This document shows, piece after piece, positions 51,480 to 64,000 of a DNA stretch of 64,000 bases. The position numbers and the translations under genes are program-made. The notes below the pieces were generated by a model. It had not been told where the DNA came from. It did no database searches and was given only the letters and a program-made list of their open reading frames with translations. Every line of letters starts with the position of its first letter. The stretch's first letter is position 1. This DNA is from Escherichia coli (GTDB lineage: Bacteria; Pseudomonadota; Gammaproteobacteria; Enterobacterales; Enterobacteriaceae), in the NCBI RefSeq assembly GCF_024223415.1, contig NZ_CP100500.1. One strand, 5' to 3'.

Positions 51480-51849
51480 TCCTGCGACCACTTTTATCAT
51501 AGGAGTGTGGAAGTGCTTTTCCATCAATCGCGATGACGTCTTTGTCATTTGATGAATGGCAGTCACGCATCCAGTTAATAAAGCACTCGTGAAATTTTGC
51601 AGGACTGATACAGGATACAACTCTGGCAATGGTATCGTGAACAGGGATACCATTTTCAAAATCACCATATTGTTTTAAAAAATCGAGATGTGTTTCCCCA
51701 AAATCCTCTATATCTTCCCAACCTTCTACACCAGAAATAACGGCACAAATAGTCAACAGAAGAATATCTGACAATTTATGTTCCACTTTCCAGGCTTGAC
51801 TGTAATCGGGAATAATAGAAATATGTTCCATCAATTTTTTAAGTTCCAT
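51480..51849 (-). mobile_element. H-repeat (ISAs1-family) transposase N-terminal fragment
   Basis: N-terminal ~120 residues ([40 protein letters not shown]...) match H-repeat-associated proteins; similarity is lost after about residue 123 and the ORF runs into the yafV 3' end. Has its own AAGGAG ribosome-binding site. Confidence 0.7.
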
Positions 51850-52152
51850 TTTTTCTCCTTATTTATGTAAGGAGTATTTGATCATGTATAAGCAATAAAA
51901 AACAGCTTCAGGTAATGAGGAATATCTCAATTTTTAAACATAAAATGCGAATTATTTAGTATAAAAAGTGTACTTCTGATGATCTTTCCCTGGATTTACA
52001 TTAGGTTGGTTATTTTCCATACCCACAACTATATTTTCTCTCTGAATTTAATACGTGCAAGACAATCGCAGCACTCTAACTGACTTCGATGTGATTTGAT
52101 GTTCAGAAAAATCCCTCATTAGATTATTATCATGAAATACAGCCAATTATCT

Positions 52153-53103
52153 TTAGTTTTTATATTTCTCAATATATTCTTTTGAAAGGATTCGCGCCTT
52201 TTCAAACTCTTCAGGAGTTAATCTATTTTCCATCTTCAATTTATATTGAACACTTTTATCAAGTCCATGAGCGTATGCGGCACTGAACCAGGCATATGCC
52301 TTTTTATTATCGAGTGGTAACTCTTTCGTGCCTACGGAATAGATTAATGCAAGATTATGTTGTGCAACAGGATCACCATGTGTGGCTGACTTTCTTAACA
52401 GTTCTATTGCTTTATATTTATTTACAGTAATCCCACCCAGTCCTTCATAGTAAAAGATACTTAGTGCTGATTGTGCTTTTATGAAACCTTGACTTGCCGA
52501 TTTATCATACCAAAAGGCGGCTTTATTATAATCCTTTTTAATAATAACGCCTTCATAATAGAGTCGCCCTAAATGATACTGAGCAACCTTATCCCCTTGC
52601 TCCGCAGCGATACGATACCACTTATCTGCCAGATCTTTTTTATTAGTCTCATCATATAGTAAAGCAAGGTTAGTTTGAGCCGTAACTAATCCAGAATTTG
52701 CAGCTTTATTTAACCACGCTATGGCCTTACCATAATCTCTTATCACGCCACTCCCTTTACTATATAATACTCCTAAGTTTCCCTGCGCTTCTGGAAAACC
52801 TTTTTCAGCTGCCATTTGATAACATTCAAATGCTTTTTCATAATTTTGAGACACCCCATAACCATGAGCATACATAACACCGAGGTTATACTGAGCCTCT
52901 GTCAGCCCCTGTTTTGCTGCAAGCGAGTACCAATATACTGCATCTTTATAACTCTGGATTCCTTCAGAACCACTTCGATATAACTCCGCGAGTTTAAATT
53001 GCGCAGTAGCATCTCCCTTATCAGCATCTTTTCTTATATATGTCATTTTATTGGAGGCTGCTGTGTCTTCTGTCACCCCAATTGCAACAGGAATACTCAA
53101 CAC
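52153..53103 (-). CDS. Sel1-repeat (TPR-like) protein; candidate immunity protein for the upstream Rhs toxin
   Basis: About eight tandem ~36-aa Sel1-type repeats (AQxNLGxxYxxGxGVxxDYxKAxxWYxKAA). Low GC, 45 bp downstream of the Rhs stop. Start codon uncertain (GTG at 53103 or internal ATG). Confidence 0.8.
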   Translation of the reverse strand: MLSIPVAIGVTEDTAASNKMTYIRKDADKGDATAQFKLAELYRSGSEGIQSYKDAVYWYSLAAKQGLTEAQYNLGVMYAHGYGVSQNYEKAFECYQMAAEKGFPEAQGNLGVLYSKGSGVIRDYGKAIAWLNKAANSGLVTAQTNLALLYDETNKKDLADKWYRIAAEQGDKVAQYHLGRLYYEGVIIKKDYNKAAFWYDKSASQGFIKAQSALSIFYYEGLGGITVNKYKAIELLRKSATHGDPVAQHNLALIYSVGTKELPLDNKKAYAWFSAAYAHGLDKSVQYKLKMENRLTPEEFEKARILSKEYIEKYKN

Positions 53104-53147
53104 TTCAAAAAAAAAACATCACAACAACACACATTAATATTTTTCGA

Positions 53148-56100
53148 TTATTTTTTATCGGCATCTTTTTTATCATCACCTTTAAATTTATCTACCGCTT
53201 CACTAGAAGTCATGTCAGTAATATAATCTCCAAATGCATTTTCAGGCACAAAGGGCAATTTACCCAAAGTTGCACCTAATAATTCCTCCGCTCCTGTATC
53301 AGCAGCAGCATAAACACCAGATTTAAAATCCCCTCCCTTACTTAAAAATGACAATCCCATTTTCAAAGCTATTTTCTCAACAAACGTTTTTCCCGCTCCC
53401 CAAGAACCACCTAAAGCACATAGCGCCAACTCGGATTTATCCGGCATCTTATGATCAGACATATAGTCAGTCGTAGCAACCGCACCACATGAACTAAGAC
53501 TTCCAATTGCTATCTCCCCCCATGTAAGAGTCCCCCCTTCTAATGCAGCCGCACTTGCTACTGGCTCGGTAAATACTACTCCGGCAATAACAGGAGGCAG
53601 TAAAGCCCATCCTTTTACATAATCGTCTAATGGATTATACACTCCACGCATACTTGAAAAATCATCCAACGCTTTAAATTTTTCTTCATCTGACAGGTTC
53701 GGGGCGAATCCAACATTAGCCCCCTGCATAGTGTTATAATAATTAGTTCCAAATATCATTTGCGGCGTTACATTAGCTAACCCCAACGGATCTATATGTT
53801 CAATAGGATTGAGTGGGTACTGGTAAGGATTTAATCCTCCTTCCAGCCCAATCGGGTCCTGGGTGATATACCGTCCCTGCAACGGGTCATAGTACCGGTG
53901 ACGGTTGTAATACAGCCCCGACTCCTCATCATACTGCTGTCCCGGCAGACGGTACGGCTGTTGCAGGTGCTGCGCGCTGGTTTCGCCCAGCAGGTTTCCC
54001 CACTCGTCATACTCCCCCTGCCACGCCGTTTCCCCTTCCGGGCTGATGAGCGCCTGCGGCAGTCCCCGGTGGTCGCAGTGGTAAAGATGAAGTTTCCGCT
54101 CCGGGATGTATTCCGCCTCCAGCTGCGCGGCCATCTGCTCCGCCGTCAGCCCGCACTGCGCAAGCCATGCCTCACTCTCCGCACTCACCGCTCCCGCGCG
54201 CAGTTCCCGCTCCAGCCTCCCCAGCATCACCGACAGCTCCGCCGGTAGCGTCACACCCGTGTCCTCTTGCAACACCTCCGCCAGGCTCCGGTGCCGCGCC
54301 TTCGCCTGTTCGCCATTCTCTGTTTCGATTCTCAGGAGCGGCGTGAAGCTCCCCGGCTGGTATACCGTCTGGATACGCGTGGTGCCGGTCTGTATCGTCG
54401 TCAGCCTGTCGCCGTCCCACCCGTACCATGTCACCTCCGGTTTACGCGACAACGACATCCACCCCGTCAGGTCACGCTCCCGCCGCCATACCCGTTTTCC
54501 CGTCCGGCGGCCCAGCGGGTCATAGAGGTAACGGCTCTCCACCTGTGGTTCGCCGTGCTGTATCCGCGTGTAGAACACCAGGCGGTGCTGGCTGTCGTAG
54601 TGGTAGTGGTGGGTCCGCTCGTCGTGCATCCGGATAACCCCTTCCGGGATGCGGTCCGTCTTCTCCGCCAGCCTGCCGTATTCATCGTGGCGGTAGACAT
54701 AGTGCGCATCTTCCGCGATGCGGTTATCCGGCCACGCCGTGAGCGTGCTGTCCGGGTGCAGTTCCGGGTCCGGCAGCCGGTTTCCCGCCGGGTCTGTTGC
54801 ATACGGGATATCGATATCCAGGTTCGCCGCCGTGGTGTGGACGCCCGTCAGCCTTCCCGTGTCACTGTAACGGTACTCCCGGCTCTCCTGCGGGCCGCTG
54901 ATGCGGATTAGCTGTCCGTTGTCGTTCCAGTCGTAGTCACGGTCAAGCTGCGGGAGGTTCAGGTGCCTGCTCCGGAGCTGGCCGCTGGTATTCCAGGCGG
55001 TGGCAAGTTCATATGCCTCCCCGCCGAAGCTGCGGGCCGTCTCACGGTGCAGCCGGTCCCGCGTGTACTCGACCAGTGGCGTTCCGCCCAGCTTCATCCC
55101 CGCAAGATAACCGCTGCCATACGTCAGCCACTCTACCGGCGGCAGACCGTCCGGCTCCTGACGGGTCGCCAGTCCCTGTTCGCTGTACGCGTGCCCCGTC
55201 TCATGCTCCCACAGCATCTCCCCCGTCTCCGGGTTCTCCACCGTCTGCCGTTCGCCCGTCAGGCGGCCTTTATCGTCATAGCCGTAGTGGACCGCCACAC
55301 GGTGGCCTTCACTGGTATGGCTGATGGTGGTTAACCACCCGTGCTCATCATACTGCCACTGCTCCGCCGGGTCGCCGTTCACCGTCCGGTGCGTGATGCG
55401 GTCCGACGCATCGTAATGCCAGAGGGTGATAAGTCCCTCATCTTCACTCTGCGTGAGTTTTCCGGTCAGGTCATAGTGGTAACGTTGCGTCCGCCCGTCA
55501 AAACCGCGCTGTTCAGTCAGCCTGTCCACCGGGTCATACCGGAACGTGGACTGGCTGCCGTTCTCGTTGGTCAGCACGGTGATGCGCCCGGCAGCGTCAT
55601 ACCCCATGCTGCGCGTAAGACCGCCTTCCGTCACACTCACCGGACGCCCGCGTTTATCATATTCGATGGTGCTGCATTTACCGTCCGGTGATATCGTTGC
55701 TGTCAGGTCGCCTGCGGCGCTGTACTCATAACGGATTTCACGCCCCTGCGCATCCTTCTGACTGACCAGTTGCCCACGCGGGTTATAACTGCTGTAAGTG
55801 CTGATGCCTTCTTCCCGGTGAACGGCGATTTGTTGACCGTACCGGTCGTACTCATACCGCGTCGTGTACCCCGAGCAGTCCGTAAAGGCCAGCAGTTGAC
55901 CGTAACGGCTCCATGCCATCTGTTTTGTACTGCCCGTCGCATCCTCTATCCCTGTCGGCAGCTCACTCGCCGGGTCATCATAGCTGTAACTCGTCGTCTC
56001 ACCGCTGCGTGAGGTCTCCGCCGCCAGCCTTCCCTTCTCATCATACTCCCGGCTGCTGCGAAGCCCGTCCGGGTACGTCACCGACGTCACCTGCCGCTGG

Positions 56101-63463: not shown

Positions 63464-63469
63464 CACACC

Positions 63470-63883
63470 ATGATACCGGATCGGGAAAGAACCACAGGTT
63501 CTCTTTTTGAGCGTATGGAAGCCTCTTCGGCCAGAAACCGGCAGGGAGGCAGTATTCATTCGCTCAGGCAATCCATTCGCCAGAACCTACGAAACATTCT
63601 TAATACCCGGTCCGGTAGTTGCCGAGGTGCGCCTGAGCTGGGCATTGATGAACCGGAAGGGGCTGAAAACTTCCGCGAATCCATGAGTCGGGCCATCGAG
63701 CAATGTATAGAACGCTATGAACCCCGGATCTCACACGCTGAAGTGCAGGCAGTGGTTTCATCCGCCTCCAGCCCGCTGGATATGACGTTTCATATTACAG
63801 CCTGGGTGACATTTAACGAAACGCATGAGGTGCTTGAATTTGATATGGCACCGAATAGCAGCCAGCATTACCGGGTGGACTGA
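63470..63883 (+). CDS. tssE: type VI secretion baseplate protein TssE
   Basis: 137-aa ORF with GSLFERM N-terminal motif, in the expected position after tssC. Confidence 0.8.
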   Translation: MIPDRERTTGSLFERMEASSARNRQGGSIHSLRQSIRQNLRNILNTRSGSCRGAPELGIDEPEGAENFRESMSRAIEQCIERYEPRISHAEVQAVVSSASSPLDMTFHITAWVTFNETHEVLEFDMAPNSSQHYRVD

Positions 63884-63886
63884 CAA

Positions 63887-64000
63887 ATGGAATTTGAAGA
63901 ACGCTATTTTCGGGAAGAACTCGATTACCTGCGCCAGCTTAGCAAGCTGCTGGCAACGGAAAAACCCCATCTGGCCCGCTTCCTGGCCGAAAAAGATGCG
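63887..64000 (+). CDS. tssF: type VI secretion baseplate protein TssF (5' end only; continues past the window)
   Basis: ATG at 63887 opens MEFEERYFREELDYLRQLSKLLATEKPHLARFLAEKDA, a TssF-like N-terminus; truncated by the window edge. Confidence 0.7.
   Translation, partial: MEFEERYFREELDYLRQLSKLLATEKPHLARFLAEKDA

Follow-up and report, generated by a model that had tools for sequence, protein, structure and literature searches.

The yafV-proximal part of the Escherichia coli T6SS-2 island in contig NZ_CP100500.1: a Tse5-like Rhs effector, a frameshifted Sel1 partner and probable decay of the system

The right-hand part of a 64,000-nucleotide stretch of Escherichia coli DNA (NCBI RefSeq assembly GCF_024223415.1, contig NZ_CP100500.1; hereafter the window) raises a question in three parts, namely which element begins there beside the chromosomal gene yafV, whether it was gained by this strain or lost by others, and whether it still works. 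An earlier note on the window had seen at this place, from position 51480 onward, a type VI secretion system (T6SS) with an Rhs effector module, at the locus where K-12 carries only remnants. Our answer, in which we place high confidence, is that positions 51482-64000 are the yafV-proximal third of the E. coli T6SS-2 island, arranged as two divergent operons, that K-12 has lost the island by a 30.5-kb deletion, that the island here carries an Rhs effector resembling Tse5 of Pseudomonas aeruginosa together with a Sel1-repeat partner, and that the system in this clone is probably decaying. The T6SS-2 island at this locus is already known; what goes beyond the earlier note is the rare Rhs toxin/Sel1 pair, the frameshift in the Sel1 gene and a probable core-gene lesion in the clone.

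Identity of the island and its loss from K-12

We consider first how the island is identified. The window is collinear with the genome of NCTC10444 across all 64 kb, and its last 14 kb are 99.94-99.98% identical to KV7, NCTC9112, NCTC10444 and GPEC1446, with 3-6 substitutions separating it from each. In these four genomes, as annotated by the Prokaryotic Genome Annotation Pipeline (PGAP), the cluster can be followed rightward beyond the window, where the earlier note had proposed to look for the remaining tss genes and the tRNA gene aspV, and both are found: the cluster runs on through tssF, tssG, tagH, tssJ, tssK, tssL (icmH/dotU), tssH, vasI, tssA, tssM, vasL and a second hcp, followed by a few small cargo genes and then by yafT and tRNA-Asp (aspV). 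The whole cluster, of about 31.5 kb, is located between yafV and yafT/aspV, which is the T6SS-2 site, the yafV flank being seen in the window itself and the yafT and tRNA-Asp flank at the far end in the four near-identical genomes. All 13 core components (TssA-TssM) are represented in these genomes; TssB, TssC, TssD, TssE, TssF and TssI are encoded in the window, five of these six above the NCBIfam cut-offs, and the genes for TssA, G, H, J, K, L and M all lie outside it.

The comparison with typed E. coli clusters, which had also been suggested, gives the same assignment. The island is collinear with those of O157:H7 Sakai (ECs_0212-0238), with 97.1% DNA identity over window positions 53776-64000, and of enteroaggregative E. 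coli (EAEC) 55989, with 96.0%, the comparisons spanning 8.8-10.2 kb, from the Rhs core through tssF. Both islands have been assigned to T6SS-2 (PMC7216683), a class of the Journet and Cascales scheme, and T6SS2 clusters are known to carry Rhs elements, with K-12 having no T6SS (PMC6730261). The island is O-island 7 of O157:H7 (z0247-z0269 in EDL933) and the T6SS-2 of EAEC 55989. A T6SS with an Rhs effector module at this locus is therefore borne out by the synteny and by the 96-97% identity. Literature searches on aspV and T6SS returned a Salmonella comparative-genomics paper, which was not used, and nothing else.

Sakai and 55989 share with the window's clone the chromosomal site, the divergent operons and a gene order that includes a 74-residue open reading frame (ORF), tagH, vasI, vasL and the second hcp. 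They differ from it in the Rhs tip and in the gene that follows the tip, which is a 181-residue yibG-like gene in Sakai, ydcD in 55989 and a 336-residue Sel1 gene in the window's clone, as well as in the number and state of the ISAs1 copies and orphan rhs fragments; 55989 differs also in having ykfM and yafU as its cargo at the aspV end. In KV7 (L001:33282-35483) and Sakai, the genes behind the second hcp at this end encode a 198-residue protein, a DUF1311 protein and a 118-residue protein (annotated as 98 residues in Sakai), and the same slot in 55989 (L004:2449-3852) and K-12 holds ykfM and a 304-residue protein (yafU). This variable part of the aspV end probably represents a second effector-immunity site, linked to Hcp.

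We then ask why K-12 has only remnants here. In K-12 MG1655 the gene order is aspV, yafT, ykfM, yafU' (pseudogene), yafF' (pseudogene) and yafV. In EAEC 55989 it is aspV, yafT, ykfM, the 304-residue gene, hcp, vasL and tssM through to tssB, followed by the divergent hcp, vgrG, rhs and ydcD, two ISAs1 copies and yafV. When K-12 is aligned to 55989, two blocks are obtained that join locus positions 3294 and 33804 with an overlap of 5 bp, and because of this the difference between the two genomes reads as a single clean deletion of 30.5 kb. One end of the deletion falls inside the 304-residue yafU gene, leaving yafU', and the other inside the ISAs1 copy beside yafV, leaving yafF'. Since the end points fall inside these two genes, the word remnants used in the earlier note for the K-12 genes between yafV and aspV is literally correct, ykfM, yafU' and yafF' being what is left of the two island stumps.

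The earlier note had left it open whether this strain retained or acquired the system, and of the two, retention is the more likely reading, with K-12 as the strain that lost the island. A recent horizontal acquisition at tRNA-Asp in this lineage might be suggested by the position of the island next to a tRNA gene, by the ISAs1 remnants on its flank and by its mosaic composition, and according to reviews the neighbourhood of tRNA genes or rhs elements is a frequent location of T6SS clusters (PMC6730261). However, K-12 retains both island ends, which a single deletion has joined at 5 bp of microhomology; the island is present at the identical site with 96-97% identity in O157:H7 and EAEC 55989, and 1400 of the 5426 complete genomes carry at least 80% of window positions 50000-64000 in one place; moreover, no integrase is annotated at the aspV end in KV7. 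We thus regard a recent acquisition as very improbable and proceed with an island that was retained here and deleted in K-12.

The genes of the window were called from a list of ORFs and from NCBIfam profile scans with the curated cut-offs, and domains were taken from Pfam scans. The features of the locus are as follows.

50654-51421, plus strand: yafV (2-oxoglutaramate amidase), conserved chromosomal gene flanking the island (NCBIfam NF007757, 543 bits, cut-off 249)
51475-51849, minus strand: ISAs1-family (H-repeat) transposase, N-terminal 125 codons only, at the yafV-side island end (NF033564, profile positions 1-96 of 314)
51850-52152, no strand: AT-rich spacer, about 35% GC, without an ORF of at least 35 residues
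52153-53164, minus strand: Sel1-repeat gene with six Pfam Sel1 repeats, split into a 24-residue ORF (53105-53179) and a 316-residue ORF (52153-53103)
53107-53116, minus strand: poly-T tract T10, read directly in the window, which frameshifts the Sel1 gene
53148-57536, minus strand: RHS element core protein, 1462 residues (NF041261 RHS_core, 2554 bits, cut-off 2000)
53151-53777, minus strand: Rhs C-terminal toxin domain, residues 1254-1462, after the DPLGL cleavage motif, with no assigned family
53778-57167, minus strand: Rhs YD-repeat shell and Rhs-associated core, residues 124-1253 (NF041261; TIGR03696 at residues 1176-1253)
57168-57398, minus strand: DUF6531, the N-terminal plug, residues 47-123 (Pfam PF20148, E 4.3e-18)
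57396-57536, minus strand: short PAAR-like Rhs N-terminus, residues 1-47, with GKPAARQGD at residues 3-11
57537-57611, no strand: gap of 75 bp between vgrG and rhs, with no listed ORF inside
57612-59753, minus strand: vgrG (tssI), 713 residues (TIGR03361, 628 bits)
59923-59954, minus strand: terminator-like hairpin, a perfect 14-bp stem with 8 G-C pairs followed by TTTTG, 9 bp past the hcp stop codon
59963-60481, minus strand: hcp (tssD), 172 residues (TIGR03344, 207 bits)
60482-61177, no strand: divergent AT-rich intergenic region between hcp and tssB, 696 bp, 38-41% GC
61178-61678, plus strand: tssB, small sheath subunit (TIGR03358, 171 bits)
61713-61937, plus strand: conserved 74-residue ORF (WP_000123970.1, a hypothetical protein in KV7 and 55989)
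61988-63463, plus strand: tssC, large sheath subunit (TIGR03355, 701 bits)
63470-63883, plus strand: tssE, baseplate (TIGR03357, 119 bits)
63887-64000, plus strand: tssF, first 38 codons, continuing beyond the window (TIGR03359, profile positions 3-31)

The gene list and the strands that had been read from the letters, with the H-repeat fragment, the Sel1 gene, rhs, vgrG and hcp on the minus strand and tssB, tssC, tssE and tssF on the plus strand, are each recovered here, and the named genes all score so far above the curated cut-offs that chance is excluded, tssF apart; its N-terminal fragment of 37 residues scores below the cut-off and fits the start of the profile, the full gene being present in KV7. 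The start that had been placed at 51480 agrees with the point where the homology to K-12 stops, as the yafV flank is 97.8% identical to K-12 as far as window position 51482. The island likewise ends, as had been described, at the H-repeat fragment beside yafV, which PGAP labels in KV7 as a pseudogene with a missing C-terminus. Relative to the copy in EAEC 55989, this ISAs1 remnant has an internal deletion of 743 bp, the end points of which differ from those of the K-12 deletion. The first ~145 bp of the adjoining spacer (51850-51994) are conserved sequence from upstream of ISAs1, matching ISAs1 flanks in more than 5000 genomes. An Rfam scan of positions 50000-64000 gave no match.

Based on these identities, the plus-strand operon (tssB, the 74-residue ORF, tssC, tssE and tssF onward) would provide the sheath, the baseplate, the membrane complex and ClpV, and the minus-strand operon (hcp, the hairpin, vgrG, rhs and sel1) would provide the tube and the spike, as well as one effector carried on the spike and the immunity gene that goes with it. 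The 696-bp region between them presumably holds the promoters of both operons, and seven of the 20 promoter-like sites found lie in it, six on the plus and one on the minus strand. The Hcp protein has the same accession in KV7 and EAEC 55989. VgrG is a gp27/gp5 spike in which the gp5 C-terminal trimerisation region is extended, the Pfam domains Phage_GPD, Phage_base_V and Gp5_trimer_C reaching residue 630, and the Pfam scan detected no toxin domain in it.

Two features were absent from the earlier note. The first is the strong hairpin between hcp and vgrG-rhs, a candidate terminator or attenuator that may set the ratio of hcp to vgrG-rhs expression. The second is the 74-residue ORF between tssB and tssC, which is kept in KV7, 55989 and Sakai (ECs_0232); it matches TssC residues 50-102 with 34% identity (E 2e-8) and gives a weak match to TIGR03355, so that it could be what remains of a partly duplicated tssC or else a small paralogue.

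A Tse5-like Rhs effector behind vgrG

How the effector is carried by the spike can be considered from its nearest solved relative, Tse5 of P. aeruginosa (8cp6_B, E 1.7e-120). The deposited shell chain of Tse5 starts at P48 and aligns to P48 of the window's Rhs protein, with DUF6531 matching the Tse5 shell from this residue onward, and the putative autoproteolytic sites of the Rhs protein align with those of Tse5. In Tse5 the N-terminal 5-kDa fragment (residues 1-47) forms a PAAR-like domain on which secretion through VgrG1c depends, the DUF6531 plug anchors this fragment, the shell encloses the toxin, and aspartyl autoproteolysis frees the toxin at the C-terminus (PMC10684867). The same parts are recognised here: a literal P-A-A-R at residues 5-8 in a short N-terminus before DUF6531, and an Rhs-associated core that ends at residue 1253 in a motif of the PxxxxDPxGL type and is followed by a variable C-terminal domain, as in Rhs polymorphic toxins.

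The earlier note had called the N-terminus PAAR-like, and the wording is apt. Residues 1-29 align weakly (E 0.066) with a single PAAR repeat of SalCis10, a tip protein (9rce_c), so that the PAAR-like part amounts to only about one repeat in the ~47 residues ahead of the plug. It weighs against a PAAR-type tip that the Pfam model PF05488 (PAAR_motif) gave no match to residues 1-454 at E values up to 10, and because Pfam detects none, to speak of a PAAR domain would overstate what is there.

The 75-bp gap between vgrG and rhs, which had been described as free of an Eag-type chaperone gene, measures exactly 75 bp and contains no ORF and hence no Eag/DUF1795 gene. The N-terminal fragments of Eag-dependent Rhs effectors are of 25-45 kDa with predicted transmembrane regions, and by contrast the N-terminal fragment of Tse5 has no membrane-binding module (PMC10684867). 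In the first 250 residues of the window's Rhs protein no N-terminal transmembrane segment was detected, the highest hydropathy over 19 residues being 1.44. That no Eag gene is present agrees with the lack of a transmembrane region that would need shielding, as can be reasoned from the literature.

Thus, by analogy with Tse5, we propose the following. The ~47-residue PAAR-like N-terminus would cap the VgrG trimer encoded directly upstream. An Eag chaperone would not be needed, because the N-terminus offers no transmembrane segment for it to shield. With the DUF6531 plug as its closure, the YD-repeat shell would enclose the 209-residue C-terminal toxin, which would be freed by aspartyl autoproteolysis after the DPLGL motif.

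It is useful to state how far the likeness goes. Tse5 (PA2684, carried on VgrG1c) and the window's Rhs protein both begin with a PAAR-like piece of ~47 residues, continue with a DUF6531 plug from P48 and a YD shell, and end in a C-terminal toxin that an aspartyl-protease motif precedes; N-terminal transmembrane segments and an Eag chaperone are lacking in both. They differ in the toxin, the two toxins having no detectable sequence similarity, in the residue that precedes the site of N-terminal cleavage (N47 here and K47 in Tse5) and in the secretion system, which is the H1-T6SS in Pseudomonas and T6SS-2 here. The immunity protein of Tse5 is a small membrane protein and not a Sel1 protein.

With the Eag-dependent prePAAR effectors, such as Rhs1 of Photorhabdus, RhsA of P. 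protegens and those of the vgrG-eag-rhs islands of Shiga toxin-producing E. coli, the window's Rhs protein has in common the Rhs shell, a presumed VgrG-dependent delivery and an AARxxD start (AARQGD here); unlike them it has no eag gene and no N-terminal transmembrane region, and the histidine of AARxxDxxxH is replaced by a lysine. The Rhs elements of K-12 (NF041261) belong to the same core family over the full length, with a high-GC core, a low-GC tip and an adjacent H-repeat (ISAs1). They have no T6SS for delivery (PMC6730261), whereas the window's rhs gene lies inside the main cluster directly after vgrG.

The toxin domain and its Sel1 partner

At codon 1253 of the Rhs protein the homology with Sakai and 55989 stops and the GC content falls from about 65% to about 40%, which is the pattern commonly left by the exchange of an Rhs tip. 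This tip together with its Sel1 gene is rare, being found in 32 of the 5426 complete genomes. The 209-residue toxin domain gave no significant match to Pfam or to PDB sequences. Searches for homologues returned five matches, 13 when 1.84 billion cluster representatives were searched and 19 when a profile was used; each of these is an Rhs tip or an orphan fragment, found in E. coli, E. albertii, Salmonella, Buttiauxella or metagenome contigs, with no assigned tip domain. The domain consists of alanine and glycine to 23.5% and has one moderately hydrophobic stretch (hydropathy 1.51). The predicted structures are all-helical and of low confidence, with a mean predicted local distance difference test (pLDDT) score of 36.6 from an alignment of nine sequences and 41.1 from 16 sequences. 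A P-loop, suggested by a weak adenylate kinase match (E ~0.5) across GGSWGAGKT, was rejected, as the homologues read APGR[TGS] at this place and the pattern is not conserved. The toxin would thus belong to a small, unnamed, predicted all-helical and alanine/glycine-rich family confined to Rhs C-termini of the Enterobacterales.

What lies downstream of the homologues bears both on the target of the toxin and on its immunity protein. The homologue with 79% identity, from Salmonella, is followed by Sel1 genes. That with 59% identity is followed, 15 bp downstream, by the start of a gene for a 350-residue Sel1 protein with an N-terminal transmembrane helix, which is 36% identical to the Sel1 protein of the window. 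Behind the homologue with 47% identity there is a gene for an 81-residue polytopic membrane protein, and behind those of the ~30% clade there are genes for proteins of ~190 residues with two transmembrane helices. It is mainly because every one of these downstream partners is membrane-associated that we propose the inner membrane, reached from the periplasmic side, as the most likely place of action of the toxin. Against this it should be weighed that the evidence consists of the composition of the domain, the 1.51 stretch, the all-helix models at pLDDT 37-41 and the membrane location of the neighbours.

As cognate immunity protein the Sel1-repeat protein is the most likely candidate; it would be held at the inner membrane by its N-terminal anchor or signal peptide. 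Its gene lies directly downstream of the toxin and encodes six Sel1 repeats, and in the T9 allele (see below) it overlaps the rhs stop codon by 17 bp. The scan of the window found no other ORF of at least 35 residues between rhs and the ISAs1 fragment, and for this reason the Sel1 protein is the sole immunity candidate in the window.

There is precedent for such a role. Sel1E of Klebsiella pneumoniae is a proven T6SS immunity protein, neutralising the toxin VgrG4, and PA5087 and PA5088 of P. aeruginosa have been cited as solved immunity proteins (PMC7216683). These, like the Sel1 protein of the window, are repeat proteins encoded just downstream of a spike-associated effector. The toxins are unrelated, being the DUF2345 domain of VgrG4 for Sel1E and a phospholipase D for PA5087/PA5088, as against the Rhs tip here. 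Unlike the three precedents, the Sel1 protein here, with its putative immunity role, has a conserved N-terminal membrane anchor.

It could be argued that the Sel1 protein is an adaptor or part of an unrelated module, with the true immunity gene lost or located elsewhere. The small polytopic membrane proteins behind the 47% and ~30% homologues are of the classic immunity type for membrane toxins, and in two distant loci, which likewise weigh against an immunity role, the homologous Sel1 gene stands beside a gene of ~155 residues and apart from the toxin. However, a Sel1 gene follows the toxin directly in each of the three closest toxin clades (100%, 79% and 59%); divergence is faster in the Sel1 protein (36% identity) than in the toxin (59%), which is expected of cognate pairs; the low-GC block covers the toxin domain and the Sel1 gene together; and to these are added the lack of any other ORF of at least 35 residues before the ISAs1 fragment and the precedent of Sel1E. 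We therefore judge it unlikely that the Sel1 protein has a role other than immunity.

In the two distant loci, which are T6SS-2-like metagenome contigs (L012:3524-6451 and L019:1773-3257), an exported protein of ~155 residues and a Sel1 protein of ~330 residues flank an orphan Rhs tip. The two may form a separate effector-immunity module, to which part of the Sel1 co-occurrence may be due. As the Sel1 gene travels there with the ~155-residue gene, the co-occurrence in the most distant loci is ambiguous, and it was set aside as support for an immunity role.

Lesions in the clone and the state of the system

We now turn to whether the system still works. In the window the Sel1 gene is frameshifted, with T10 in place of T9 at 53107-53116, so that the conserved membrane anchor is cut off: the extra T splits a 24-residue ORF with the hydrophobic N-terminus from a 316-residue repeat ORF with a GTG start. 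The T9 allele encodes 336 residues from a start 17 bp inside rhs, and its N-terminal segment has a Kyte-Doolittle hydropathy of 2.54; this form is present on at least 1000 contigs, and the exact 316-residue product was not found in the protein collection. Judged from these sequences, the 316-residue ORF is a truncated reading and not the native gene. The Sel1 gene of the earlier note is therefore present and on the minus strand as described, and the ORF as it had been listed is the truncated part of a split gene.

Among the 32 complete genomes that carry the toxin/Sel1 module, the tract is T9 in 27 (among them GPEC1446 and NCTC9112), T10 in four (KV7, NCTC10444, SCU-316 and DSM 103246) and a match longer by 3 nucleotides, apparently T12 and in frame, in one. 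All four T10 genomes have a disrupted T6SS, three by a deletion in tssG and one by an ISCro1 insertion in the vgrG region. The association of T10 with a damaged T6SS is suggestive, the genomes being few and related, and the finding of the Sel1 frameshift only in genomes with a disrupted system fits relaxed selection on immunity after loss of the weapon.

The lesion in tssG lies about 2.8 kb beyond the window. In five of the six nearest genomes, tssG carries an identical frameshifting deletion of 23 bp (L001:18442-19501 in KV7 and L005:15702-16761 in NCTC10444), the junction reading GGCGCCGGA followed directly by GCGATAAC, and the intact form containing GGAGCAGGTGGGCGCAATGCGCCTGGGCGAT. The deletion truncates TssG at residue 325 of 360, removing profile positions 280-300 (of 300). 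Of the 5426 complete genomes only five have it, and these all belong to the window's six nearest relatives; since the five come from independent projects, the deletion is real. Given the T10 tract and the collinearity with NCTC10444, the chance that this strain also carries the tssG deletion is about two in three. A frameshift annotated in vasL in all relatives was also considered as a defect and was rejected, as it affects the last few codons only (449 residues, against 450 in 55989).

These lesions bear on whether the system works and not on its identity. The earlier note had named two findings that would speak against its reading, another locus and an incomplete set of core tss genes. The locus is the yafV-aspV site, and the core set is affected in part, through the tssG frameshift in the five relatives.

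From these data we propose that the T6SS in the window's clone is probably decaying. Several points weigh against this. The extra T could be a homopolymer sequencing error, as all four T10 assemblies could be long-read; NCTC9112, which is equally close to the window, has an intact tssG and T9, and tssG itself lies outside the window; and the effect ascribed to the loss of the last 35 residues of TssG is read from its sequence.

These points lead to an opposite reading, in which the island here encodes an antibacterial T6SS that is intact and fires, the extra T being a sequencing error or bypassed by a restart of translation, and tssG being intact as in NCTC9112. It would be in line with this that the genes in the window are all full-length ORFs, that NCTC9112, in which tssG is intact and the tract is T9, shares 99.97% identity with the last 14 kb of the window, that the vasL frameshift is trivial and that homopolymer errors are common in long-read assemblies. 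By contrast, the tract is T10 in the window itself, and NCTC10444, with which the window is structurally collinear, combines T10 with the tssG deletion; the identical deletion is shared across independent projects by five of the six nearest genomes, and each of the four T10 genomes has a disrupted system. We thus take an intact system to be a serious possibility but the less probable one, and the decay of the system remains our preferred reading.

A further and more speculative proposal, which we advance only tentatively and expect rather to fail than to hold, joins the above points. The toxin may be the founding member of an uncharacterised family of helical, alanine/glycine-rich inner-membrane toxins, the immunity of which has been swapped between small polytopic membrane proteins and periplasmic Sel1 proteins with a membrane anchor, and the T9/T10/T12 tract may be a slipped-strand hotspot by which immunity is switched off once the T6SS is inactive.

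Some observations concern other parts of the window. Its single tRNA gene, tRNA-Thr(CGT) at 29339-29414 on the minus strand, adjoins proA, which we take to be the thrW position, the site of the CP4-6 prophage in K-12; the only genes that flank this tRNA gene in the nearest annotated genome are LysR-type regulator and oxidoreductase genes, with no integrase annotated. At ~37300-42400, according to the KV7 annotation (L003:35871-40956, shifted by +1436), there are a truncated prfH, an rtcB-like fragment and a partial lateral-flagellar flhA beside lafU, and these decayed genes look like the Flag-2 remnant that is also present in K-12. At window positions 42578-42581, KV7 has an insertion of ~1.4 kb (L003:41146-42577), annotated as IS1397 beside rayT, which the window is without. 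At its left end, KV7 has an IS5-like element that truncates an aldo/keto reductase gene, and window positions 1-1614 have no match in the KV7 stretch examined.

Finally, we note what these findings mean. For annotation, the locus is fixed as an ordinary E. coli T6SS-2 island, and the current understanding of T6SS is unchanged. For K-12, ykfM, yafU' and yafF' are shown directly to be the two stumps of the T6SS-2 island. The rare, unnamed Rhs toxin and its membrane-anchored Sel1 partner constitute a candidate effector-immunity pair. Moreover, the small clone from farm animals and humans, including an O78 isolate, in which the 23-bp tssG deletion is private, could serve as a natural T6SS-2 mutant.

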